From: Ruditapes philippinarum
Taxonomy: Eukaryota
Direction of reading: 5' to 3'
Assembly (NCBI RefSeq): GCF_026571515.1
Contig: NW_026860085.1
Coordinates: 1 to 64,000, forward strand
DNA: 64,000 nt
Below are positions 1-51,000 of this stretch, piece by piece. Each line of letters begins with the position of its first letter. The first letter of the stretch is position 1. The notes beneath the pieces were generated by a model. The model searched no databases, was not told the DNA's origin, and saw nothing but the letters and a program-made list of their open reading frames with translations. A program made the position numbers and the translations under genes.

Positions 1-293
1 ATGTCTGTTGATATGGTGATCGCGATAAACATTCAGACATGGAGCCCTCCGCCTCTCATTTTTCTTAAATTTTAATAAATCAGGTCACATGTAAGAAGTG
101 TTCATAAACCTTAAATGTTCAAGAATAGTATGCTAATTCCATTTACTTGTAACTGATTAGTCCTCAAATGTACCTCACTTGTGATAACAAATAAGATGTT
201 TTTATGTAACGTTACCATTTATATATTAAAAGAATATTAATGTTTATTGTGTAAGAAAATAATATAACACAAATATAAATATAATATATAACA

Positions 294-3200
294 ATGGATA
301 AAAATCACCATCCGGAAGAAATTCTGGAGAGAATAGGTGGATGTGGAAGATTCCAAGTGTTTCTTTCAGTGATGTCTCATTTGATGAAATTGCCAACTGT
401 GTTAACAATGTACCTAATGGTGATCTCTATAGCAACGCCCGAATGGCGATGTATGGATGACAACGGACCTAGTCACGTGACTGCAGCTTTTAATACAACT
501 TTTCTACATGTTAATTCAACTTACGCAAATTCTTCTGATATAGACTATTTTGGTACAGCAAATCACTCAAAACCGTACAACAATATAAAAGCATGTGAAA
601 ACAGAAATGGTACCCGGTGTAACAATATAGTTTACAGTGATGAAATGAAAACGATAGTGTCTGAGGTAGGTGGTCCACGACAATGAAAGAGAGCTTGTAT
701 TCTATGTGTTTATGTCAAGGTTTAGTTTAACATGTTGTATGATATATATTGTATGTTTTTTAAAAGGTAAAGCTGCTTGTTTCAAACGGAAAGAAAGCAA
801 AGGATAGTTGCGTATAGACTAAAGCAACCTTAACTACAGTGACTATAGCAGAGTTATTAAGTGAGCAAACTCTATAATGTTATCAGTTAAATACTTTAAT
901 ACAATTTGTAAATGTGTGCAGTCGAATTGTATTATATTCTTTATACAGTGAGTCACTATAAAAAAAAACATAATCTCCTTAATTCACAGGACTTGAACAA
1001 ATCCAAATATATAGCAGGGCTATACAACTAAATACTTCATAGAGTATCATAGGTTAATAGAAAAAATACAATGACAGATACAATGTCATGTTGATGAAAC
1101 TTTCCTTGTCTAAATACAAAACTACCGATAAACATAAACTTGGTTGCTTCAATATTTTCAACAACAAAAATGTAGGTTTGTATCAAATACTGCAAACATA
1201 TTTTGTATTATCTGGTGTCGTTTTTTCTATTATAACCATAACTCAGTGTATTCCAACCTTTATCGCTATTGGTTCGAATCTTTCATGTAAGAAAATTGTA
1301 AAATTTGCTGGTCTTTGTTGTTGGATTGTGGGGGTTGCGTTCATTGAACGCCGCCTTTCCTTGTTGATCTTGTTAATCATATTTTTTGCCTGCAGAAGGT
1401 AGGTGTTTTTACCCGGATGCCTACTAATGCCTGATAAAAATGCCCGGGTGTGGTACCTTGGGTGCTTATCTACCACAGCAGGAACGACATACAGCCTTTA
1501 AAGTTCCAATGTGATTTTACACCTAACAGAATGATATTGCTAATTCTATATGTCCTAAACTATTTCTTCTCTTGTTTTTCTCCAGTGGTCAATGTCATGT
1601 ACCTTACCGTGGGTTCCTTCAACAATTGCCTCAATTCAAATGCTTGCAATATTATTTGGAAACCTGGCTTGCGGCCAAATAGCGGATAGCTTTGGTCGAA
1701 AGATGCCTTTATTTTCATCACAGCTGTTACTTATTGCTGCTAACTTAATTGGGTATTTTTCTACATCTTGGCTGATGTTTGGTGTTGCACGAGCAATATG
1801 TGGTATGTTCGTCCTGCATTTCTAATTGATATTTTTAGTCATTATTGTCATCGTATATCTATTCATTTACATTTAAATTTCCAAGTTTGAAATAATCATT
1901 GATAATACAAAAAGGTTATTATTTATTAATGCATACGAATAGAAATAAAACTGTAAAACTTACCATTTAAATACAGTTAAAACATAAAGTCGCATACTTT
2001 ATTTTTGACGGTTTACTCAAGGTTTATTTATTTAATTTAGTTACAGTTAAGTAACAGTATAGTAACATTTAAGTTACAGGTCGGTTATAGTTACATTACA
2101 GTTATGGTAAAGGGAGAATTAAGTTAAGTTGTTTATCTTTAAGTCTTTTAAAGGTACAGTTAAGTTATAGTTAAATTACAGTTAGATTACAATTAAGTTA
2201 TATAAATAGATCAGTATGTAGATCAACCAGTCACTTATATTTTTATAATCAGGTATCGGAATGGGAATGTTTTTGACCGTTCAGTACAGTCTGTCCACTG
2301 AGGTCAGTGTATCCAGTTGGAGACCATGGATCGTGGCATTTCCAACATGGGCATTAATGGCGTGTGGACTAGCATTAGTGAGCTATCTGATGCCAGACTG
2401 GAGAAAACTTCATCTGCTCACAACTATAGTAACAATTCCATATCTTCTCCTGTGGTGGTAAGAAAAAGAACAATGTGTATAAATAATTTCATGTTTTGAT
2501 GACCAAAGGTTAATTATAATGAGAGATAAGGCACAGGAAACAAGATTTGTTATTGAAGCTTGATTAAGTATAGGTTAGTGTTCGAGAACGTATTTAATGG
2601 AATTAACTTAGTCGTTGACAATAAGATATAGAGGATATTTGTTTGTTTGTGTGTAAGATGAAATTTTATTTCATCGAGTGGGCTTTAAAAACAGTATTCT
2701 CACGAGTGGCGTAGCCACGAGTGAGAATACTGTTTTTAAAGTTCACGAGATGAAATAAAATTACATCTTACACAACAAACAGACAAATTTTCTTTTTATT
2801 TTATGCTTTAAAACAAGTTAAAACGAAATTTCCATAATTTTAACGTTGATATTAAAATCTGTTTCCCCCGTTGAGAGCCCCATTTAGAGGGAATTTCTCA
2901 TTAAAAACAAGAAGTCTTGAGCTGAAAAATAAGTCCGCCAATGAAAGTTAAATGAATGTGATATTTATTCATCTTATTAAAAAAATATGAATGATCGCTT
3001 GTTTTAATAATAAAAACAAACAATTCTTGTAGGAGAAATCATCCAACCATCCATCCATATTTCTGTTACTTACTGCGAATTTATATTAGACCTGGCTTTG
3101 TAAAATGTAAACGGCAGCCATTTTTTAAAGTCGTGTATTTCATGGGAGGAAAATAATTGTGTAAGATACAGAAGGATATAATTTGGATTTGTTAGTCATA

Positions 3201-10401: not shown

Positions 10402-10840
10402 TTAACAGTATTTTCCTCGGGATGTACTGTTACCCACAAACCCATGTATTATTTATATAATGTATATCCGTATCAGTACCTGTAACTGATACAAATCATT
10501 CTGATTGGTGACTGTTTTCTTTTAAACATTTTGTGCATCAACAACCCTGGTTGTAAACTGTTCGCATGATATGCCTTTACTGTGGAAGAAGTAAACATTA
10601 TGAGGACTAATATCAATTTTAACTTTTTTTAAAAGTGATTTGCATTGTTCTTTTATATAAAAGCAACGTCATGACTATGATAATTAGGCATTGTGTATCT
10701 ATTAAGAAAAGGTCTATGCAATTGCATAAGACACTACGTTTCGTAAAATTGTCTGTTTATCTGTCCGGAGTAACACAGTTTTTTCACAACAATTTCTTTC
10801 TCACTATCAGTACTTCCCAGACATGTATATTTATACATAT

Positions 10841-11075
10841 GAGCCGTCTCATGACAAAACCAACATAGTGCGTTTGCGACCAGCATGGATCCAGACCAGC
10901 CTGCGCATCCGCGCAGTCTGATCAGGATCCATGCTGTCCGCTTACAAACCCTATCACAAGTAGAGAAACTGATAGCGAACAGCATGGATCCTGATCAGAC
11001 TGCGTGGATGCGCAGGCTGGTCTGGATCCATGCTGGTCGCAAAGCCATTATGTTGGTTTTGTCGTGACGCGGCTC
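10841..11075. mobile_element. 235-bp palindromic MITE (GAG...CTC, Sola-like), copy 1
   Basis: GAGCCG...CGGCTC termini, ~95-bp TIRs, 4-bp ATAT duplication. Six copies in the window. Confidence 0.9.
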
Positions 11076-11655
11076 ATATATATTCGTTTGCATGTGTTTT
11101 ACAATTATATTTTTCCGGGCTTGAATTTGGAGCCGGTATTGCAGTGACGGATACAGGAAAATAATACTAAAACGTTACAATGTTGCAAGTACATGTATCT
11201 GCGATCCCGGTGCCTGCAAGAGCTCGGAAAAATATACATTCAACAAATTTTATCGATTCTCTTTTTTATAAGCATGTTAGAATAGAACCAGTTATTACTT
11301 ATTTCGTGCGTGATGATGTTATAAAGAACGGTTTATCATTCAAATGTTTTTGTTATATCGACATTCGTGATTATATTCCTGTGCATTTGAACTGGAACCG
11401 TGAATTATTCTACAACAATACACTTAACAATTGATATTTATTATATTCAATAGGTTTCCAATATTGAATAGCACCGTCTGTTTAAAATTATATTGATCAC
11501 AAAAACTGAAGTATGTTGAAATCAGTTCAATCAGTATGTTTAAAATAAAACTTTAACGAATACTTCCTCCTTTGTCATTGAACCATTAAAGGAAAACTTT
11601 GATTTTGTCTACGATGTAAATGTTGGCTCTTTCAGTCGTTTAAAACCCGTCAGTT

Positions 11656-14600
11656 ATGTCTTTTATTTTCTTAACTGTAATGCTCGCTGGTATAACTATG
11701 TGCGTGATGGTAGCATATGGTATGTACTGTTTATTTATTTTGTTTCGTGTATATAATACATTAGGATTTGTAACTATATTATAAGTAAGGCCTGTTTGTA
11801 AAGATGCAATATGTAGATTTATATGACCGGAAGAACTTTGTGAATGACAGTGCCACGATCTTTATTCATGTGTTAACTGTTATAACTGGCAAGGGACAAA
11901 CATATAAACTTTCATAGCTTTCTGCCTCATTCCTAAATACATTGTGTAAATATTGTTCATAATATCATATCATGCTAAATATTATGCTAAATTTGAATAT
12001 GTGGAATAAATATGTTTAAACCAAAGTTATATGACCAAGATATACATTTAACGACAGGTATACAATTGCTAACTATAGGTTGTCTTTACAAATAAGAAAA
12101 TGATTAATATCAAAATCACAAAAATACGTAAAGAACAAGAAAATGCTTGTCAAACGTTTCAGATTCATAGATGATAAAAATTATTCTAAGTTATTGAAAA
12201 CTTGACTAACGTAATACAGGTCTAGTTACTTAATAGTCACGAGAGTTTAAACAATGTATTGACGATTATGATAAAAAATTATGCCATGTTTTATATTTGA
12301 GCCGCGTCACGACAAAACCAACAGAGTGGGTTTGCGACCAGTATGGATCCAGACCAGCCTGCACCTCCGCGCAGTCTGATCAGGATCCATGTTGTTCGCT
12401 TGCCAACCATATTACAAGTAAAGAAACTGATAGCGAACAGCATGGATCCTGATCAGACTGCGCGGATGTGAAGGCTGGTCAGAATCCATGCTGGTCGCAA
12501 ACGCATTACGTTGGATTTGTCATGACGCGGCTCATTTGTGTGTTTAAAAGGGAAACTTTGTAAATAATGATATTTTTTATTCTGCAATAAAGTTGATTGT
12601 TACGTTGAACCAACGGAATGTTTCCAACCAAAAGTCTACCATTTTATAACAGAGAAGGAATCAAGAATGTTCATCAAGGTACACAGAGGTCGTCGATCTG
12701 TTGATTGTACTGGACATATAGGTGTCACAGTAAATTGTTACAACGAAAACAGCTGTGAATGTAATAAGGCAGCATGCTCTGTAAGTGGCGACATCAATAT
12801 AACATGTTCTGTGTTCTAAGAAAGACATAGATAAATAACATTGAAAGAATGTAAGTTTAATACTGAATTTATTGAACAAGTTGAATAATGAATTTATTGA
12901 ACAAGTTGAATAAAATTATATTTTGCGAGCCACTGGCAAGCATGATATTATTCGACTATTAAACGAGTTAAATAATTTCAGTAATGAACTCAAACGAATT
13001 CACTATTTTATTTATCACATACAAAAATATAGACCGTTTTAAGTGAAAAAGAAACATTTTTCACTGACGCGCATTTAGTGTAACGCTAATATTTAGCGAG
13101 TTTTTACGCTATGTTTATATCACGCAAATGACGTCACGTCAAATTATATGCACGGCCGTGCAATACCATTTATACGGAGTGGCAAAAAAAGGGCACGGTT
13201 ATATGATAAAAGTGCATTGATTTCGTATAATAACATAATTATTTATAGTACTATAGACTTTCCATTAATCTCTTGAAATACTGGTTTTGACAAAAAAAAT
13301 AAATAAAATCTTGTTTAAAAAATCTCAGATTTTCATTTTGAAAAGGAAATCAATTGATTTATTCTCCTTGCTGATTTTAAATACAGAAATAAACGAAAAA
13401 TAGCATTAAATTGTACATTAGATTCGGCACTTGCACAATTCACTATTTATTATTTATTCTTTAATTTTAGTGTACCATTGACATTAACTACACAAAATAT
13501 TACTTTAAAATATCGTAAACATTCATTTATATTGATTTAATTTTTATGATCATAAAATTCAGCCGTTTGTCTGATGTTAAAAAAAATCTTGTGTACCTGT
13601 GTAACGAATTTCAGTGATCAAAATTCACAGTAGTGGTTTGACTCAGAACTGCGTTGTTACATAGTCACTAGCCTCTTGTCAAGCCGGTTTTCACTCTTTT
13701 CCCGATCCTATAGATGATGAGTGATATGCTGTAACCATAGATGTGTTGTTTTATTTAAATTATAGCAAGAATCAGATCGTGAATACTATTGTCATTCCCG
13801 CCAAACACCATGTAGTTCAACACAAATATGCTATCTCAAAACACCTTGTCCTGTTCACTGGGAAACGGAATGTGGGTGTAAGTTACTCTTTCATATTATG
13901 TACGAGTATATGTTAGTGTTCATCAGTGCTGTTCTACAGGCATAAGAAACCTCGACGGGAGCGATAGCGACAGGAGAATGTTTCTAATTTCTGTAGAACA
14001 GCTAAGGATGAATACTAACATATTTAGTGTCAAACTTTATTCGGCCTCATAATCATTCACTTTATAACGTCACTATGTCGTTCAATGAAGTACTATGAAA
14101 AATAGAAGTCGACTATGAACAAAATTCGATATAGTATCGACTCCTGTTCTTCTATGATAATTAACTCATAGGATTTTTTTTAAAAATACAGCGTTTTCAT
14201 TGGATTACAAATAAAGTTGGACACTAAATTAAATTGTCTACTGTAAAATTCTAGATTATTCTGTTTAATAGATAGATATTATAAGAATCTTACACCGGCT
14301 GGTCTGTACCGGCAGCCGGTGTAAGATTCTTATATTCTAGCACGGGTGAAAACGGTAATCCTGTCTGAGATGCAAGAAAAATTTAAATTTACAATTATTA
14401 TAAAACACATTTTAATCGTATATAAGCACCTAACATTTTTTCTTTCTTTTCTTAATAATTATTGACTTACTCTTGGGTAGAAATATCTAAAATTCTTCAG
14501 AAGCTTTTAAATGTCTCTGTTATATCACGTGACTACCATCACCGCTGTAGATAGCTTCTTGTTTTATTCTATTTTAGATAATGCATGTCTGAGCAACCCA

Positions 14601-17188
14601 TGTAAGAACGATGCCACGTGTACTGATGTTGGAATCTTGTCGTATGCATGCAAGTGTAGATCCGGTTATGGTGGAAAGAATTGCGATATTGGTAAACGAT
14701 GTACCTTCTGAAACACATTCCTGTCTATTCTTTGAATCTTGACATATAAACGTATGAAATTATAAGCAAAAGATTAGAGACCGTAAGTCTGTCGGTCACG
14801 TGGCAACTGAATCAAACTATGCAATAATAGAGCAGATCAAGGTCATCCGCCACATTCATGTAGTCTGCGCTGTTTGTTATTCAGCCAGTACTTCAGTTTT
14901 TAAGTATCCCAAAATGATGAATTATGTTGTTCAGAACGAAAAAAAAGATAATTCTACTTTAGATATTTACTGTGATGTGGCGTAAACATAGTATTCATGT
15001 GCAGTAAGGGTTATTCTATTTTCAGAGTGTGGTTTATTAGATTAAACTTGAAGTTATACCCTGAGAAACAAATTGTTTTTAAAATAAATATTAAAGCCAC
15101 TATTAAATTACTTTGATAGTGGAAAAATATGTTTCCTTACATAACACACAATTATGTAGTATTTTCTTTTGGACATAAAGATATTTAAGATTTTCGTATG
15201 TTATTATATTTCGATTTTATTTTGTTATTCAGGACATGCTGAACTTTAAACGTTTTCATTCTGACGGTTTGAAATTTGTGAAGTTGGCAGCCTAGCTTCC
15301 TAAAGAAAACTAAGAATACATATAAAAAAATAAAGATCATGATATTGAATAAAAGCTTGGAATGATCTAAGAAAGTGTCCATAATACATTCCCGACCGTT
15401 TTCATGTTTGTAGTATTCTTAGTTTTCTTTAGGCTGCTAGGCTGCCAACTCCATACTGCTGGGCTGCCATCTTCACGAACATATTAATATTGTATATTTC
15501 AGACACGTATGTAGATGTTGTGTTCTTAATTGATACTTCCGAAAGTCAAAGTGAAGCTACTCTGTTTAAACAGAGACAGTACGTAAAGAATTTCATATCA
15601 AGCCTATCAATAGGACCAAATGATTTTCAAATTGCAATAGTAACATGTTCTTTACATGCGAGCGTTGAGGTATATTTGAACAGCAATTCAACTGTAGCGG
15701 AAATGACAACAATATTAGACAGTATCCAATCTGACAACGGACCAAGTTTTATAGGTGAATGTTTTATGTTTTTAAGGACGGAAATATTCACTTCTGAAAA
15801 AGATGCTAGATATTATGCACGTAAATTTGTCATTGTTTTAAGTGATGGTTTGTCAAGCAACCCGACTGACACTGTTCTACAGGCGGGCCTATTGAAGCAA
15901 ACGGGGATCGACATCTTTGCCGTTGCTACGGGAGACCAAATCAATCATAAAGAACTGTCTGATGTAGCGACACATTGGGATAAAGTGTTCTCCGTGATGA
16001 CCGATGATGTCATGCATACAATCTTTAAAACACCAATTACAGTTAATACCGCAAGTGAGTCTTATTTTGATTGTTTGTTTGTTGTTATTGCTGTTGTTGT
16101 GGCTGTGTGTGTGTGCGTGCGTTGGTGCGTGCATGCGTACGTGCATGCGTGCGTGTGTGTGTTTTTTTTGAAAATGTCCTAAAATTTTTAGAAAGTGAAA
16201 CGATTTAAGAAATAATTTACGTGTTACATGAGTTAAATGACTGATTTTGGAGTATTTGCCACCATATTAATCTGCGTGTCTAACGCAGTAAGGGTATTTT
16301 GCATATTCCGATTTATTTTTGATATTTTACGTAAATTTTCAGTGCCGTTTGCAATGTATAAATTACTTTTTTGTTTACTTGACATTTTACTTTTTCACAT
16401 TTCCAAAGTTTTCATGAGATTAAGCATGAATCTGGAGGCATGCTTCTTAAAGTCAAATATTCTTGCAGCTGCTTTGAAAGGAAACTATATATGTCTTATT
16501 GCTTAAGCACTATCTACGAGCAATGCCAGATGGTTTTGACGAGGAGACTTTTGAGACTGTCCTTAGTTCTCATATTCCATTCATCTCATGTTTTATTTCA
16601 GATTGTGATCACCGTTATAGTGATTTATCTATAATGTTTGACCGTTCAATGGATATATCACCGGTTACATTTTATGAGCAAATATCTGCTGTTGGAGATC
16701 TTCTCAAGACCATTTCACTCGGGTCAGACAATGTTCATGTCAGTTTATACCAATATTCTAACGATGTTGACGTCGTTTTCAACCTTGACGAATATTTCTT
16801 ATCTGGAGATATGGTCATAAAACTAAATGGAATAGCGCAGTCATCCGAAAACGGAAATACCACAAACGCGCTTAAATTCCTGCAACATGCTTTCGTTGTT
16901 GCAAATGGAGCCAGAACAAACGTGAGAAAAATAGCCTTACTAGTAACAAGCGGACACTTTGAAAAAGATATAATTGACGATTTGATGTCTGAAGCAAAAA
17001 CTTTAAAAGACATGGACGTTATATTGGGAATAGTTTCAGTTGGCATGAACGCTAACATTTCTGCATTATCTAACATAGCCTCAGATCCGGCCGTAGTTTA
17101 TGTTATAGGGAAAGAGTTGGACATAGATTACAGTGTTCTTTACACTTTAAATACATTACTAGAATATGACGTTTGTGAAATAAACTAA
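11656..17188 (+). CDS. secreted protein: signal peptide, propeptide (RGRR), Gla-like Cys-rich module, EGF, 2 x VWA (518 aa; matrilin/collagen-VI-like VWA)
   Basis: Exons 11656-11719 ([21 protein letters not shown]), 12653-12780, 13766-13877, 14578-14691 ([15 protein letters not shown]...[12 protein letters not shown]), 15503-16054 ([21 protein letters not shown]), 16602-17188 (VWA). All GT-AG and phase-compatible, 1557 nt, no internal stop. The EGF and VWA exons are certain; the first three exons are my reconstruction. Confidence 0.85.
12299..12533. mobile_element. 235-bp palindromic MITE (Sola-like), copy 2
   Basis: Same family as 10841-11075; ATTT on both flanks. Confidence 0.9.
13908..14023. 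repeat. foldback hairpin element (tip GC-GATA-GC)
   Basis: ATATGTTAGTGTTCATC...GATGAATACTAACATAT and GCTGTTCTACAG/CTGTAGAACAGC arms. Confidence 0.75.
14280..14334. repeat. perfect 22-bp inverted repeat with 11-nt loop
   Basis: TATAAGAATCTTACACCGGCTG (14280-14301) / CAGCCGGTGTAAGATTCTTATA (14313-14334). Confidence 0.9.
15282..15450. mobile_element. small MITE with ~40-bp TIRs
   Basis: AGTTGGCAGCCTAGCTTCCTAAAGAAAACTAAGAATAC / GTATTCTTAGTTTTCTTTAGGCTGCTAGGCTGCCAACT. Confidence 0.75.
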
Positions 17189-19293
17189 AAATAAATTCAC
17201 ATAGAATATTTATGAGAAATGCGACGGGTATTAATGGCATTTTCGTCAGGAGACTTCGATTAATAGATTTTTTATTTAAATACAAATGACTTGAGTCTCG
17301 AGAACATGGCGAATGAATCTATTCAATTTTTGACATTACAATTAGAAACATCTTCAATTCTAACATTTTTTCACTATTAGTTGGCTGGTTGGTTGATTTG
17401 GTATGTAATAAATATACATGGACAATTAAAACAACATGTTTCTATCTGAACTTATCAAACTATTATCATTATTAGTCTTATTTTGCTTTTCTTTAAATAA
17501 TTGATATATCTTATATTTATCTATTCATTTTCGATGCAAGTTGTAACACATCAGCCTTCTAAGTCAACAAACGACAATTTATTTCGCCTTATTTAGCACA
17601 TATATTTATTGTACATTGGGAAAAGACTTCAATAAGCATTAGGTTGCTTCCAGTCTAATCCTTTTCTTGTTTTGATTATAAATATAATGTATGTAAATAT
17701 GCTTATGTGAGAAAGAATAAAATATGTTTAAACCAAAACAACATGTATGGTACAAATATTTAACACATACGTGTGAATAAATGTATTTATTTACGGTGCA
17801 TACACCGTGTCTTTCCATATATGGTAATTCCTCGTGTTTTTAATGGTTATAGTTTTGGCGGTAATTATGCACGATTTTACGTGTAAGTTGATAAAATATA
17901 GTCATTCGAGGCATTACGTTCACGCCGTCCATTTGTGAAATTTCTTTAAATATAATTTTCATATATTACGAAATATCATGGATAAATTTATGGATTTAAC
18001 ATCGCCTTATACAGATTTTTGATATCTTGTTTTATCTATTTCAGATTCTTCGTCTTTGTTTTAACATGGATGTAAAAAATTTAAAAAAAAATGAAGGAAA
18101 GGGAAGATATCAATGCTATGTTTTGATTTAATCTGAAAGTAATGCATTTCATATAATTAATGGTTTTTTATTAGACTCAAAATTGGGGATATGTCAGATA
18201 GGCGATTGAAGCAGCCGCTGATCTAGAGCTTTGGAGCTTCCTACCTCCCCCTCCCAAGACGGAGTAGGGTTGGGTAGCCCGCTCGCAGCATTTCTGACTT
18301 TGGCTTTTTCCACTTATTTTATATTTGATACTACCTGCGATTGATTAAAAATAGTATTTCTTAGAAATCGAAGTTCATTAGGTTTGGTTGGTTGGCTCGG
18401 AGAGCAGAGCACGAAAATTTTAGAACTACACTTGCAGTTTTCCTTCAAGTATTGATCAATGGAGTTGTTTCTTTTGTTTCCTGTAAATTTTTTGTTAAAT
18501 AAACGGGACGGCTTAACGGCATGCCCTCTAACCTCGTTTTATGTTATGTTTTTCTTTAAAGCTGCATGCTTGAATGTAGGTGTATGTTGGAGGATAATAA
18601 ATAATTTATGCTCGTTTGAGAGCATCGAATAAGAGCATAAATAAGCCATCAGGACATCGGCACCAAGGATACCACAAAAAAAGAGAGACTATTATTTCCA
18701 GTGTGGCCAACTGTGTTGTTGGCATGACATAGAGAGCCTTAATTCAGTGCAAATAAATACTTTCAATTAAATATTATCAGTTCGATTTCAATTATTTTTA
18801 CATATTTTGACTAGACTTACAGCACATAATATCACACAATTCAAGTTAAAACAGGATAAACATACTTTAAGAAACAAATGATAAAATTACTGATATAGAA
18901 CAAAAGTGGTGATTGAGACTGAAAAAAAGTTGAAAACGGAATAATATTACATTTCCCTACATCTGCCAGTTACTAATTGACAAAATAATGATGGAAAAAA
19001 TCTGCAACGATACATTTATAACATATCTTAATCTACAATTGCATATCCTTTGCATTTTGTCAATTTTTTTCACAAAATACAATGTCATAATAATGACAAT
19101 AAGTACCATCTGTCGATTTTACGAAAATCATAAAGATAATGAGGCTACATAGATTTATGTCAATTGTTTTATGACAATGTAAGTTAATTGTTAAATAGTA
19201 AATTGTTGACCGGATATCTAATGAATGTTCGTCTGTACGACAAATTGATCAAATTTGATTTCTTGATATCTAATGGGTTTCTTCACATCATTT

Positions 19294-19528
19294 GAGCCGC
19301 ATCACGACAAAACCTACATAATGGGTTTGCGACCAGCATGGATCCAGACCAGCCTGCGCATCCGCGCAGTCTGATCAGGATCCATGCTGTTAGCTTACAA
19401 ACCCTATTACAAGTAGAGAAACTGATAGCAAACAGCATGGATCCTGATCAAACTGCGCGGATGCACAGGCTGGTCTAAATCAATGCTGGTCGCAAACCCA
19501 TTATGTTGGTTTTGTCATGGCGTGGCTC
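19294..19528. mobile_element. 235-bp palindromic MITE (Sola-like), copy 3
   Basis: Same family; flanks ATTT/ATAT. Confidence 0.9.
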
Positions 19529-19784
19529 ATATTGCGACGTTCCAAGGAAGAACTCAGGTGCCCGTCCGGGTTAACGTAGCTGTTTAATGCTAGGCAAGTG
19601 TTTTAATAACATATTAAAATACAGTACATTTTTACTGCAATTAACCATTAATTTAACTTATTAGTGAAAGGAAAAGGATATAAACAAAATAGTCACATTC
19701 ATTAAAATTATATACCCATTCATTTTCGGTAAACTCATTTTTAACCATTGATATAGTATTGATACAGTACAAATGTTTGAGTGT

Positions 19785-45000: not shown

Positions 45001-48000
45001 GCCTTTTACTATATCTCAATTCATTGAGAAGTTGCAGCACTTTGAAATCAGTTTTGATGGAAAAAAACAATGCAAAATAGTGATTTTTGGCAATTTTGAG
45101 ACTTCCCCCCATTGCCATGGTAACAGGAAATTTACGATTGAGCATGCTGTTACAGAGGCAATGGTCCAGTCAACATTTGTGCCAGGTTTCATCAGCATTG
45201 CAGCATTTTTCATAGTTTCATAGCAGTTTGAACTTGTTACAGGAGGCTTTTCAATGAAAAAGGCCATTTTTCGCAATATGCTCATGGGGTAAAAGGTTAA
45301 GTCGTTTTTCAGGTACCACCTTGCACACAAAAGCTTAACAAAAGTGCAACGCCAGCACTGAAATGAGTACAATAGCTCTCCCTATTCTTCTAATAGTGGA
45401 GTTACATACCAGTATCCATTACATTAACATCAATTTACAATGCTAAAATTGACTTTAATATTATCATCTATTAAGCTATGTAAGCTATAAGTTCAGTGTA
45501 ACATACCTGCGGCCACAGCCCACATTCTCTCTGCCTGAAATTGAATCATCTGATATGTAAAGCCCATCCCTTCCTCTCCAATGATATAGTCTTGTGGTAT
45601 ACGTACATCTTCAAAAAATATCTGAGCAGTATCAGAACTTCTCATACCAAGTTTGTCTATCCTCTTAGCATGATGAATTCCTAGTTAATGATAAAATAAT
45701 AATATAGCATTTCTTCTTGCCTTCCCCTACAGCTGCTGTTAGTTGTATATTTTTGCAGGCACAAGCAGGAGCCCATATTAGTATACCAGAGATAGGGGCC
45801 TTTTATTTTAAATTGATGTCAAAAGAATAATGTGTCTCATTTGAAAGCTATGTGTACGGAATACGAAAAACAATTCCTTAAAAACAACCTCTTTTACAAT
45901 CATCGAAAATCCAGGCTTAGTATAAACTTCACAAAGGTAGATGGATCACCTCATATGATCAAATTTCAATATTCTGTTAATAGATTTGTACACATCATGA
46001 TAAAAGACAATCATAACACTTGTCCATCAAGGTCAATTAGTATTTTAATATCCTTATTTTTAACTTTTAAAAATGAAAGTAGTTAGGTCATGCAAAAATT
46101 ATCAAAATTCCAAAATTCTGCAAACCAAGTCAATCAATGCAGTTTATTAATAGAGACATGTATATAAGACATTGTATGAACATTTATCTGCTTATAAATA
46201 GCCTAAATTATTCTTTTAATGATAACAGAAAGCAAAGAATTACTTAGAACACACAAGACAGAACCACAGATACCATTTACATTTTTGGACAGAATAATAG
46301 CTGATACTGTTACAAATTTTTGAATGTATGAATTTCTTTAGACCAGACTGTCAAGGATAACATACAACAAGCAAATTCGTTGAATTTATATCCCCCGCCG
46401 AGTACTGGTTATTAACACAACAACTGAAGACATAAGGCTTTATTTATATATTAATCATGGCATAAACAGTAATATTCTTTGAACTTGATAAATATTCAGG
46501 GCAATAACAGGGCCATAACTTTGTGTTAGATAGTAAAATCTGGAAATGCCAATGAGATGTATGCATACTACATAACTAATCAAGGGCCATCAATCTGAGT
46601 TATAAGTATCTGACTGGAACAAGGCGACTATATGCATATCTCCTCTTAGTATCCCATAAAGTTTCATTGAATTCCAGCCAGTAGTAGTAGAGAAGTAGCG
46701 AGGAAACAAATATTTTTCTTTATGGATATTGCATAAGTTATCAAGGGCCATAACTCTGAGTTAAAGTGTCTGACCGGAACAAGCCGACGATATGCGCATC
46801 TCCTCTTGGTATTGAAGGTTCCCATAAAGTTTCGTTGAATTCCAGCCAGTAGTTGCAGAGAAGTAGTGCGGAAACGATTTTTACTCTATATGCATACTAC
46901 ATAACTAAGCAAGGGCCATAACTCCGAGTTAAAGTGTCTGACCAGAACAAGCCGATGATATGCGCATCTCCTCTTGATATTGATGATTCCCCTAAAGTTT
47001 CGTTGAATTCCAGCCAGTAGTTGCAGAGAACTACTCCGGAAACAAAATTTTACTCTATATGCATTCTACATAACTTATCAAGGACCATAACTCTTGAGTT
47101 AAAGGGTCTGACCGGAACAAGCTGACGATATGCGCATCTCCTCTTGATATTGATGATTCCCATAAAGTTTCGTTGAATTCCAGCCAGTAGTTGCAGAGAA
47201 CTACTCCGGAAACGAAATTCGGACGGACGGATGGACGGACGGTCAGATGCGCATCTCCTCTTGATATTGATGATTCCCATAAAGTTTCGTTGAATTCCAG
47301 CCAGTTGTTGCAGAGAACTACTCCGGAAACGAAATTCGGACGAACGGATAGATGGATGGACGGACGGACGGACAACGCCAAAACTATATCCCCCTCCCGA
47401 TTCCATCGGCTGGGGATAAAAATGCAAGCACTTATTTTATTTCCAGTTTGACCCTTACATCAGCAGACTTTTGAGACAGCTATGAGATAAAAGGGAATCT
47501 GGGAACCAGGCGCCAGCTCATATTGAATAGACTCCTTGGTACTTTTACATGCCCAGTGTATAGCACTGATACATGAGAGCATTACCTGCATTTCTTACCA
47601 GTACACCACTAAGTAGGTGGGAAACACTGATAGTGTTTCTGAAAGATTCCAAGGGTGTAACCCAGGATGGAACCCGGTACCTCAGGAGTGACAGTCAGTG
47701 GTCCAACAAACTGAGCTATCGCGCAACCATTTTCATTTATTTAAACTTTGCTTAAGGAATATATTGTAAAAACCATAATGTCACCTTAGTGTTGTATTTT
47801 TTTACATAGTAAGGTAAGATCAACTCCTTATATGATTTATATATATTAGGAGTTAACCAACCTGTTACTGCACTAAGGTGACAATTAAGCATCTGTCATA
47901 AGACCATACCTTTGGTATCCATAGGTAGACAAATGAGTGATTTAGAACGGTGAGCAGGGCCATCACTTGTGTTAGCTAACAGACACATCCAGTCTGCCTG

Positions 48001-51000
48001 GAAACCATTGGTGGTCCACATTTTACCACCGTTGATCACATAGTCACCACCTTGTTTGACTGCTTTAGTCTGTATACCTGAAATGTTCAATATACATAAT
48101 AATAATATAAAATTACGATTATGTGAAAATACAAACAGAACAGAAATTTTGTTACTTGGTTTAACCCTTTACCTCATATATAGGCGAAACATTAAGCACT
48201 TTCGACCCCCCCCCCCTCCCCCTCTTTTAGGGCTCAAATAGTGTAAAAATGTCCTGTTTGGGCCAAAACACATGTTTTTGTTTGGAAAATGTGGATAAAA
48301 AAGTTGCCCCCCCCCCATCCAAAAGGTACATCAGGGGGTTGCCAGAAGGGGGATGTGCCCCTTCTGTTTGGGGGGTTTGAAGGGGGGCGGTAGTCCCTCT
48401 CATCACCAAGAAAATTTTGGACTTGTGAGAGGCTAAAAATGACCCCAGGTCGATCATAAGGTAACATGTAACCAACACTGAAATACCTTTGACTCTTTCT
48501 GAATCCATCGAGAAGTTGCAGCACTTTGAAATCAATTTTGATGGAAAAAATCAATGCAAAATAGTGATTTTTGGCAATTTTGAGATGTCCCCTCGTTACC
48601 ATGGTAACAGGAAATTTAAGACTGAGCATGTTGTTACAAAGGCAATGGTCCAGTCAACATTTGTGACAAGTTTGATTAGTATCGAAGAAGTTTTTATAGT
48701 TTTATAGCAATTTGAACTTGTAACGGGAGACTTTTCAATGAAAACAGACATTTTTCACAAAATTCTCATGAAGTAATGGGTTAAGGATAACAAGATCATC
48801 ACCATTTTAAATATACAAATACAACATATGAGCCGTGTCATGACAAAACCAACATAATGGGTTTGCGACCAGCATGGATCCAGACTTGCCTGCGCATCCG
48901 CGCAGTCTGATCAGGATCCATGCTGTTCGCTATCGGTTTCTATACTGGTTATAGAGTTTGTAAGCCAATGGCATGGATCCTGATCAGACTGCGCAGGCTG
49001 GTCTGGATCCATGCTGGTCGCAAACCCATTCTGTTGGTTTTGTCATGACACGGCTCAATTATGATACATAAATGACATATGACATGAACATGTATAACTG
49101 AAAAATCATAATCTATGAAATGTGAGAATGCTTAATGAGACAGGAAATTTCTTTAAAAGCATTTCAATACATATAAATAATTATGCTCAAGAATTTGTTT
49201 ATCATTTGTTTATTTTTACCTAACAGGATCAAATTTAGCTACAATACATTATGTTTTATACTGGGGAATTTGTGTATTACAAAATGTAAGTAAAATCCAC
49301 AAAAAGAAAACCAAAGTTTTAATACATGTATAACTTTTACATTAAAGTCATCTTGCTAGTTGAGATCAAAGGCATACAATAAACAAGCAGCAAGTTCCAT
49401 GTACTGCTAACTATATGCTCCATGTTTATTACAGTAAAATAAGTTCATGTGCAAAATAAGTGTTGTCCTGCACCAACTTTTAACTTTGTACCAGTAAAGA
49501 GTTTAAATCATTTTAAAACACAAATCATGAAATTAACAGTATAGAGCTTGGGCAAATGATGCATTCTGGCTATAGATTAGTAGGAAAAAAAAGAATCCTC
49601 TGGCTCACTTTGGCTCAAAAGTAACAAATTATCTTACAGGGTGTTTGTTTTTTCCCCTTCTATAGCAGAGGCCTTTAAAATATGCCTTCCCCTATCAACT
49701 CCTCCATGAAAATGCTTTAAAATCATACAGACTTCCCCTAAAGTTCAATTTACAACAAGTTTTTTCTTCTCCTTTTGTAAAAGTACAATGTAATTTTCAT
49801 AATTTTAAGTTTGTTTACGCAAATGTTAAGAAGAACATCATATAAAGAACATGTTTTAACCAATATGATGAAATGGTAAAAAAAAATGACAAAAATAATA
49901 TAAACATATTATATATACAGAACATAAGAGACAACAGGGTTGAAACAAATAATTAAATCACATTATTTGTAACTTGTTTTTGATAATGTTAAAAAGTACA
50001 TTGTTAAAACAACATGTTGTTTACAACCTTGAAATGGTAAAAATTCTATACACGCCATGGACATTAAAGTATGCATCAAACGATGACATTAACTAACCAT
50101 CTGCAGTAACCAAAAGTGAGCTGTTCAGAGCCAGGCCATGAGAGAACATCCATGTGGTCTGACATTTAGGTTCTTAAGGATGTTTTCGGGAGTTTTCATA
50201 TATAATACAATTATCGGCAATTTTTTTTTTCCGCATTAAATATTTATATTATCATATTTAACAACATGCCAAGTTTTTAGAAATTCTATAATTGAAGTGT
50301 TTTAATTTTGCCGATTAGTTTATATGAAAAAAATCCAAAAACGTCTGTAGATCATTCTATCTGTATTTAATATTGAAATCCATTAAAGCAACTTCACTTA
50401 GACCAAAGAAAAATCTAAAATATGAATTCCTTACATAAATCAAGTGAAGCATTAAAAATGAAAAATTCTGCAAAGGGTAATATAAAGATAATACTCAAAA
50501 CTGAATTCAATATTGATTTTTAGGTCATTTGAGTGAAAGGTGATGAAACACTTTTCATTTTTTAGGTCACTTTGCTCAATAAAAGTAATTATTCTAGAAA
50601 AATAGGGTAACAGAATGATCTGAAAATTTGCACACAAGTTATTGGTTTGGAACAACATCAAATGGTACAGAAATCTCATAAATATATTTTCAGGCTCTTG
50701 ATGTAAAAAAAACAACTCAACCTCCGTGGAGTCCAATAAACTTTTAATGTACTTTCCCTTATGCTAGGCAAATCAATTCATAAAAAACCTTGTGTTAATA
50801 AACTGTAGGTTTCTCTCTCACTTGACTGACAAACAGAACTTTTTTACAACATAAAAACAGAGTTTGAATGACAAGATTCATCTTTATTCCACCATAAAAC
50901 ACCATCAACTGTTGCAATCATTTTGTAAAACCAATCAACATTGTATTCAAATATAACATGTATGAGAGAGAAAAACTAGCATGAAATATCAAAACATTAC

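Follow-up and report, generated by a model that had tools for sequence, protein, structure and literature searches.

Candidate vitamin K-dependent substrates in bivalves: a carboxylase-type propeptide and four invariant glutamates in an EGF-VWA protein family, outside the Gla domain family

Introduction

Does a clam gene that joins a furin-type propeptide to a Cys-rich, Glu-bearing module encode a protein that carries gamma-carboxyglutamate (Gla), and, if so, does it do so through a Gla domain? The gene lies on the + strand within the first 64,000 nucleotides of contig NW_026860085.1 from Ruditapes philippinarum (RefSeq assembly GCF_026571515.1), the stretch called the window below. An initial annotation had proposed a divergent Gla-like domain followed by an EGF domain and two VWA domains, in a candidate Ca2+- or mineral-binding matrix protein. 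Judged from its sequence, the module falls outside the Gla domain family. We give about an even chance to a different explanation, namely that the gene belongs to a bivalve family of vitamin K-dependent matrix proteins whose propeptide docks on gamma-glutamyl carboxylase (GGCX) and in which some of four Glu residues are carboxylated within a non-Gla module of eight or ten Cys residues.

Osteocalcin and MGP have no homology with the Gla-domain factors. As far as the available text of the sources cited here and below goes, GGCX selects its substrates by an exosite-binding sequence (PMC9146348); it reads hydrophobic residues at -17 to -15 with Phe at -16, a small residue at -10 and hydrophobic residues at -7 and -6 (PMC13187478; PMC12647623; PMC5578492), only Ala and Gly being given for -10 (PMC13187478), and the propeptides bound to it are helical (PMC12647623). 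GGCX also occurs in invertebrates that have no clotting cascade (PMC5578492). Conus has the enzyme, and the Drosophila enzyme recognises human propeptides, while the available part of the same source describes no classical Gla protein for Drosophila (PMC12112360). GRP/UCMA is described as absent from invertebrates in the accessible text of PMC13204790.

Results

A GGCX-type propeptide in a six-exon gene

The gene corresponds to RefSeq XP_060606513 (P0001 in our set), a protein of 538 residues whose numbering we use; the protein model of the initial annotation was 20 residues shorter. All six exons are bordered by GT/AG; joined, they keep the frame, the intron phases being 1-0-1-1-1. The features are as follows.

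11656..11719, + strand: exon 1, with the start codon and a hydrophobic N-terminus that is likely a signal peptide (residues 1-21); from the GT donor, hydropathy and tblastn of P0001
12593..12780, + strand: exon 2 (corrected), encoding the propeptide, the furin-type site and the Cys-rich module up to its middle; from an acceptor test and contigs over 12628-12780
12640..12696, + strand: GGCX-recognition-like propeptide core with F-16, I-15, S-10, F-7 and I-6, ending in RGRR; from mapping, the determinants published in PMC13187478, the family pattern and chance controls
12643-45, 12646-48, 12661-63, 12670-72 and 12685-12696, + strand: F-16, I-15, S-10, F-7 and RGRR of the propeptide, respectively
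12697..12780, + strand: first half of the mature module with C60, C70, E73 (12745-47), C76, E77 (12757-59), C78, N79 and C83; predicted helical in the mussel homologue
13766..13877, + strand: exon 3, second half of the module with E86 (13769-71), R89, E90 (13781-83), C93, C100, C106-Y-L, P-C112-P, H115 and C120; residues invariant in 17 of 17 modules
14578..14691, + strand: exon 4, EGF domain (PF00008, E 1.8e-9)
15503..16054, + strand: exon 5, VWA domain 1 with DxSxS motif (PF00092, E 3.8e-29); contigs join 16054 to 16602
16602..17188, + strand: exon 6, VWA domain 2 with degenerate DxSxS, and stop codon (PF00092, E 2e-24); same contig joint

The highest hydropathy windows of P0001 begin at residues 1-8, and the furin-type propeptide end expected after the signal peptide was found as RGRR. 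The residues F39, I40, S45, F48 and I49 stand in the exact GGCX register, with RGRR seven residues further on, and the hydrophobic positions -15, -7 and -6 are thus occupied by I, F and I. The 5' exons of the initial annotation (11656-11719, 12653-12780 and 13766-13877) are real, can be joined in frame and are present in RefSeq, except that the acceptor of exon 2 lies at 12593, 60 nt upstream of 12653. Five AG acceptors were tried for this exon; three are in frame, and only 12593 yields P0001 letter for letter. Because the acceptor had been placed at 12653, F-16 and I-15 fell outside the exon and these determinants were missed. The other two in-frame acceptors are 12635 and 12653, and no read support was seen for the latter. 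Use of the 12653 acceptor would remove F-16 and I-15 and could switch off GGCX docking. One isoform (P0005) is two residues shorter at the exon 3/4 junction.

A search profile built from three venerid N-termini retrieved seven proteins at E <= 0.001 among 1.84 billion representatives, and an eight-row profile retrieved 21 proteins among 1,442 candidates. All named family matches are bivalve (Ruditapes, Mercenaria, Pecten, Ylistrum, Mizuhopecten, Argopecten, Crassostrea/Magallana, Saccostrea, Ostrea and Mytilus), with pairwise identities of 34-92% (median 48%). Our counts refer to 21 sequences that have an N-terminus and to 17 complete modules. Left out of both are P0010, P0026, P0027 and P0029, which lack the N-terminus, the isoforms P0005 and P0009, and the second copy in P0015; the set of 17 further omits P0008, P0011 and P0030, which are fragmentary or broken models, and P0006, a near-duplicate.

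The propeptide signature runs through the whole family. Position -15 is I or L and -7 is F in all 21 N-termini; -6 is L or I in 18, A in two and F in one; and -10 is Ala in 16 and Ser in five, P0001 among the latter. The pattern [IL]x4[AS]xxF[LIAF], followed by a dibasic site, occurs in 21/21. The predicted cleavage site is RxxR in 13 of 17 proteins and xxRR in the four scallop proteins, and in five oyster proteins the -6 residue stands exactly five before the site, as in factor IX numbering. By chance the strict pattern is rare: 6,215 control residues contained it twice, and shuffling the 26 residues that precede RGRR produced it in 0.046% of cases. Ruditapes and Mercenaria are 89% identical in the propeptide, compared with 53% in the module, 51% in the VWA region and about 52% over the mature protein. 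An AlphaFold model of a mussel member predicts the propeptide to be helical.

A conserved Cys-rich module with four invariant glutamates

The N-terminal module is a domain without a Pfam match that has been kept across clams, oysters, mussels and scallops. It is N-terminal and precedes 0 to 13 EGF domains, followed by two VWA domains or a transmembrane helix. The oyster members comprise membrane-anchored EGF forms (hydropathy 2.59 at 222) and a form with 13 EGF and two VWA domains. P0015 contains two copies of the module and is probably two fused gene models; P0015, P0023 and P0045, all from Mytilus coruscus, have consecutive accessions on one contig, a tandem cluster in the mussel. As initially annotated, the quoted protein segments and ten Cys residues between the furin-type site and the EGF domain are present. 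The module has ten Cys in clams and eight, without C70 and C78, in all 14 complete modules of scallops, oysters and mussels. Invariant in 17/17 are F48, R56, the eight Cys residues (60, 76, 83, 93, 100, 106, 112 and 120), E73, E77, N79, E86, R89, E90, Y107, L108, P111, P113 and H115. The phase-0 intron between exons 2 and 3 lies one codon after C83, and several truncated family models start or stop at this very point; the intron position therefore seems to be common to the family.

The four glutamates E73, E77, E86 and E90, which are never replaced by Asp, lie at mature positions +7 to +34 and form two i,i+4 pairs. In the ten VWA-bearing members, 40 of the 50 Glu residues of the module fall in invariant columns, versus 10 of 140 in the VWA region. 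GGCX favours a hydrophobic or long-aliphatic residue before Glu, according to the available text of PMC12647623, and the residue before E77 (Cys) and before E90 (Arg) is of the preferred kind in all members.

No known fold emerged for the module. Pfam returned nothing on exons 2 and 3, and no TNFR-like family, the alternative considered in the initial annotation, is in the Pfam listing. The mussel model has a predicted local distance difference test (pLDDT) of 64.5 and a predicted template modelling score of 0.48, with strands in the second half of the module and three short helices in the first half (pLDDT 72-78); fold searches gave no usable match. Searches of PDB sequences with two family alignments (A1, A2), exon 2 and P0011 gave chance-level matches only. 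ESM Atlas yielded no usable match for residues 22-122 of P0001 and, for P0019, only generic Cys-rich clusters (Dumpy DPY, EB) with scores of 0.75-0.77, below the bar of 0.9. Pfam Dickkopf_N, Lustrin and Defensin_int (E 0.065-0.33) were rejected as generic Cys spacing, and a resemblance to ShK and LNR was dropped, the Cys spacing being different and Pfam giving no match. We found no description of the module or of bivalve Gla proteins in a literature search that left most subscription papers and supplementary proteomics tables outside its reach; six accession numbers likewise led to no paper there.

The module is not a canonical Gla domain

The initial annotation rested its Gla reading on the exact spacing of the Gla core and named homologues that do not conserve this core as evidence against it. 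In R. philippinarum the spacing is not trivial, since E-C-x4-C-x2-E-x2-R-E appeared in none of 200,000 shuffles of the module (ECx4C alone in 11%), but the homologues do not keep it. ECx4C occurs in 3 of 17 modules and is absent from all 14 pteriomorph ones, and 3 of 21 family sequences, belonging to two venerid species, carry the strict motif. Homology to the coagulation-type core in the register initially proposed is thus not supported, although ExxRE-x-[YF]-C is kept in 15 of 17 modules. The gap from C83 to ExxRE is two residues in the ten-Cys forms and four in all 14 pteriomorph forms. C78, the Cys of the 'EC', exists only in ten-Cys forms and always alongside C70. Because the two were gained or lost together, a C78-C83 Gla loop is unlikely; a C70-C78 disulfide is the simplest and likely reading of this pattern, which amounts to one evolutionary event.

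Coagulation-type Gla domains contain about 9-13 Glu and a C-terminal aromatic motif, FWxxY, whereas the bivalve modules contain 4-6 Glu. The available sources give ExxxExC as the central Gla motif (PMC8006282) and F/L-E-E as an omega-loop feature of Gla domains (PMC5578492). ExxxExC, FWxxY and [LFV]EE are each found in 0 of 17 modules, and the register initially proposed puts K and A at the core Glu positions of ExxxExC. Pfam Gla was not listed at E up to 10 for the exons, the whole proteins or the 21 members, a search in which most matches above E 0.1 are lost to the HMMER filters. The HMMER comparison of the N-terminus with Pfam Gla, suggested at the outset as a check, thus gave no match, and PDB sequence searches likewise gave no Gla match.

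EGF and VWA domains

The EGF domain next to the Cys module is supported by PF00008, with the start of exon 4 at 14578, and two PF00092 matches bear out the double VWA architecture. A search with the VWA1 exon found the 100% identical P0001, its Mercenaria orthologue P0002 and one fish VWA protein. The first VWA domain has DxSxS in 9 of 10 members, P0001 included, and the second in 0 of 9. A metal ion-dependent adhesion site consists of DxSxS plus a downstream Asp, and VWA1 of P0001 fits this definition by its DxSxS. Mussel PTMP1 (PDB 4cn8) was the second-best PDB match of the family profile (E 4e-52), over the VWA pair only. PTMP1 binds collagens, according to the available text of PMC4754843. 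The NCBI name of P0001 is 'collagen alpha-5(VI) chain-like [Ruditapes philippinarum]' and leaves the N-terminal module unnamed. P0001 gave no collagen family match and has no triple-helical Gly-X-Y repeat, so the name reflects similarity of the VWA domains only.

RNA support for the exons

Read mapping covered four of 24 listed runs, none of the listed ones being on record as RNA. Contigs of two runs that we took to be RNA by guess join 16054 straight to 16602. In run X5 a contig of 401 nt (depth 7.57) has 153 letters on 12628-12780; the remaining 248 correspond in number to the lengths of exons 3 and 4 plus 22, and the same depth is recorded at 14622. In run X1 a single depth value of 30.1 marks both 11669-11676 and 12641. 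The X5 and X1 contigs extend upstream of the 12653 acceptor. The 5' joints, for which RNA support had been sought, are supported only indirectly, because an intronic repeat filled the table of joints (581 further joints). The variant letters of the contigs agree with P0006, a close allele or paralogue, and the contigs may therefore stem from a copy other than the gene in the window. P0006 is a variant of about 90% identity annotated on another contig, an allele or a recent paralogue, and exon 2 occurs in the RNA contigs in two forms, with 4 and 11 differences. Few raw reads fell on the unique exons, the depth being about 0-4 in X21 and near 0 in X23.

Other features of the window

By tblastn, no second copy of the gene was found within the 64 kb. 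A 244-nt palindromic repeat resembling a miniature inverted-repeat transposable element is present in three copies (10836-11079, 12294-12537 and 19289-19532), with arms of about 105-120 nt that are 31 nt apart. The copy in intron 1 has very large depth in the RNA runs, drawn from copies genome-wide. Short intronic inverted repeats lie at 14280-14334, 13928-14002 and 15279-15453 (arms of 22-41 nt, 87-100% complementary). An acyl-CoA dehydrogenase exon was found at 47899-48168 on the - strand (PF02770, E 2.2e-9). The open frame at 285-683 (+ strand) has no Pfam match at E 0.01; we take it to resemble the first exon of an SLC22-type organic cation transporter.

Discussion

The GGCX-type propeptide, the furin-type site and the four invariant Glu residues keep the initial proposal of a vitamin K-dependent, Ca2+-binding matrix protein alive, with roughly balanced prospects, but not by way of the Gla core on which it had been built. 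From these features we infer the following course. The protein would enter the endoplasmic reticulum and likely be secreted; its propeptide would dock on GGCX, some of E73, E77, E86 and E90 would be turned into Gla, and a furin-type protease would then cut after RGRR, probably freeing the propeptide. The Cys module, with its probable C70-C78 disulfide in clams, may bind Ca2+ and so attach in a Ca2+-dependent manner to mineral or anionic surfaces, while VWA1 may bind a collagen-like ligand, by analogy with PTMP1. The protein would in this way link a mineral or anionic surface to a collagenous matrix.

Several observations weigh against carboxylation. F-16, which is invariant in human substrates according to the available text of PMC13187478, is present in only 9 of 21 N-termini (clams, P0001 included, scallops and two unnamed sequences); oysters have E, and mussels I, K or N, at this position. 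Mussel members carry W at -17. Chicken Bgp2 and zebrafish Bgp1b, as annotated, lack F-16 as well. The venerid -10 residue is Ser, outside the Ala and Gly of the published rule; Ser was admitted after the sequence had been seen, and the family pattern was drawn from the alignment itself. At longer distance the propeptide is less well kept than the module (17-32% versus 42-49% for scallop and mussel proteins). The residue before E73 is Asp or Asn in 15 of 17 modules, and the one before E86 is Asn in 10 of the 17. The module is strongly conserved overall, with 19 invariant columns, so the invariant Glu residues may be structural, and the 17 sequences are related, not independent.

These points feed a competing explanation that we regard as less probable than carboxylation but a serious contender: the propeptide would be an ordinary amphipathic pro-helix serving folding, sorting or latency and removed by furin, and the module would be uncarboxylated and disulfide-rich, with Glu, Arg and Asn residues that serve the structure or make direct contact with Ca2+ or a partner. 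The loss of F-16 in 12 of 21 sequences, the unfavourable residues before two of the four Glu, the many equally invariant non-Glu columns and the weak leaning of ESM Atlas to generic Cys-rich modules all fit this explanation. To our knowledge, AxxFL propeptides also occur in augurin/ECRG4 and C17orf67, vertebrate proteins with no known Gla, although a literature search did not confirm this. A pro-helix of this kind accounts less well for the finding that clams and scallops have all five GGCX positions in register, that the propeptide is conserved above the mature protein between two venerids, and that no Glu is exchanged for Asp whereas the Asp, Lys and most Asn columns vary.

An unlikely further explanation, which parts from the carboxylation reading in ancestry and not in chemistry, is that the module is a true Gla domain of the coagulation or osteocalcin/MGP type, diverged beyond profile detection and provided with extra Cys residues and a C-terminal beta extension. 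Besides the venerid C-x4-C-S-x-E-x-x-R-E spacing and the conserved ExxRE-x-[YF]-C, such descent could explain the invariant C-E-x-N-x3-C, which recalls C-E-x-N-x2-C of human and zebrafish osteocalcin (Bgp), the predicted helix-turn-helix of the first half, and the intron phases 1-0-1-1, equal to the coagulation-factor pattern. The absent Gla motifs, the low Glu number, the eight invariant Cys, the joint occurrence of C70 and C78 and the Pfam and PDB sequence searches without a Gla match tell against it. Moreover, three registers each fit with a one-residue slip, so the resemblance to Gla is weak, and the phase-0 intron one codon past C83 would fall within the would-be core.

With osteocalcin (BGP) and MGP the family shares the F-x5-A-x2-F/hydrophobic docking motif with a furin-type site, few Glu residues, C-E-x-N in a helical segment and an extracellular location, and shark Mgp1 and the mussel members have RRxAHSF in common. 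Unlike osteocalcin and MGP, the bivalve family lacks ExxxExC, has 8-10 Cys instead of two and a predicted beta-rich second half, continues into EGF and VWA domains or a transmembrane helix, and has no detectable sequence similarity to them. The order of signal peptide, propeptide, Glu-bearing module and EGF domain, as well as ExxRE with an aromatic residue, is shared with coagulation-type Gla proteins (factor IX/X, protein C, Gas6, PRRG1-4), and the membrane anchor of oyster members with PRRG proteins; the omega-loop LEE/FEE, the EExC core and FWxxY are missing, the hexapeptide-loop Cys is not conserved and Glu residues are fewer. We therefore predict an osteocalcin/MGP-like way of working, propeptide-directed and with few Glu, in a Gla-EGF-like build that belongs to neither group. 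The tandem VWA pair is common to PTMP1 and VWA proteins of the collagen VI/matrilin type, but the PTMP1 match excludes the propeptide and Cys module, and the clam protein has no collagen triple helix. The gamma-carboxylated conopeptides of Conus set a molluscan precedent for vitamin K-dependent carboxylation, although they are venom peptides with a different propeptide signal and not multidomain matrix proteins.

The broader claim that extracellular and cell-surface proteins throughout the bivalves are endogenous GGCX substrates, using the vertebrate F-16/A-10/L-6 code for a disulfide-rich domain without kinship to Gla domains, falls in our estimate just short of an even chance. If it is true, molluscs own a vitamin K-dependent, Ca2+-binding matrix adaptor, and the docking code is older than the protostome-deuterostome split and independent of the Gla fold. 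With its vertebrate-type propeptide and four named target Glu residues, the bivalve family puts the matter of invertebrate GGCX substrates within reach of a direct test, and invertebrate secretomes could be searched by propeptide instead of by Gla domain. Even if it is uncarboxylated, the module is a domain unmatched in Pfam that has been kept from clams to oysters, mussels and scallops.

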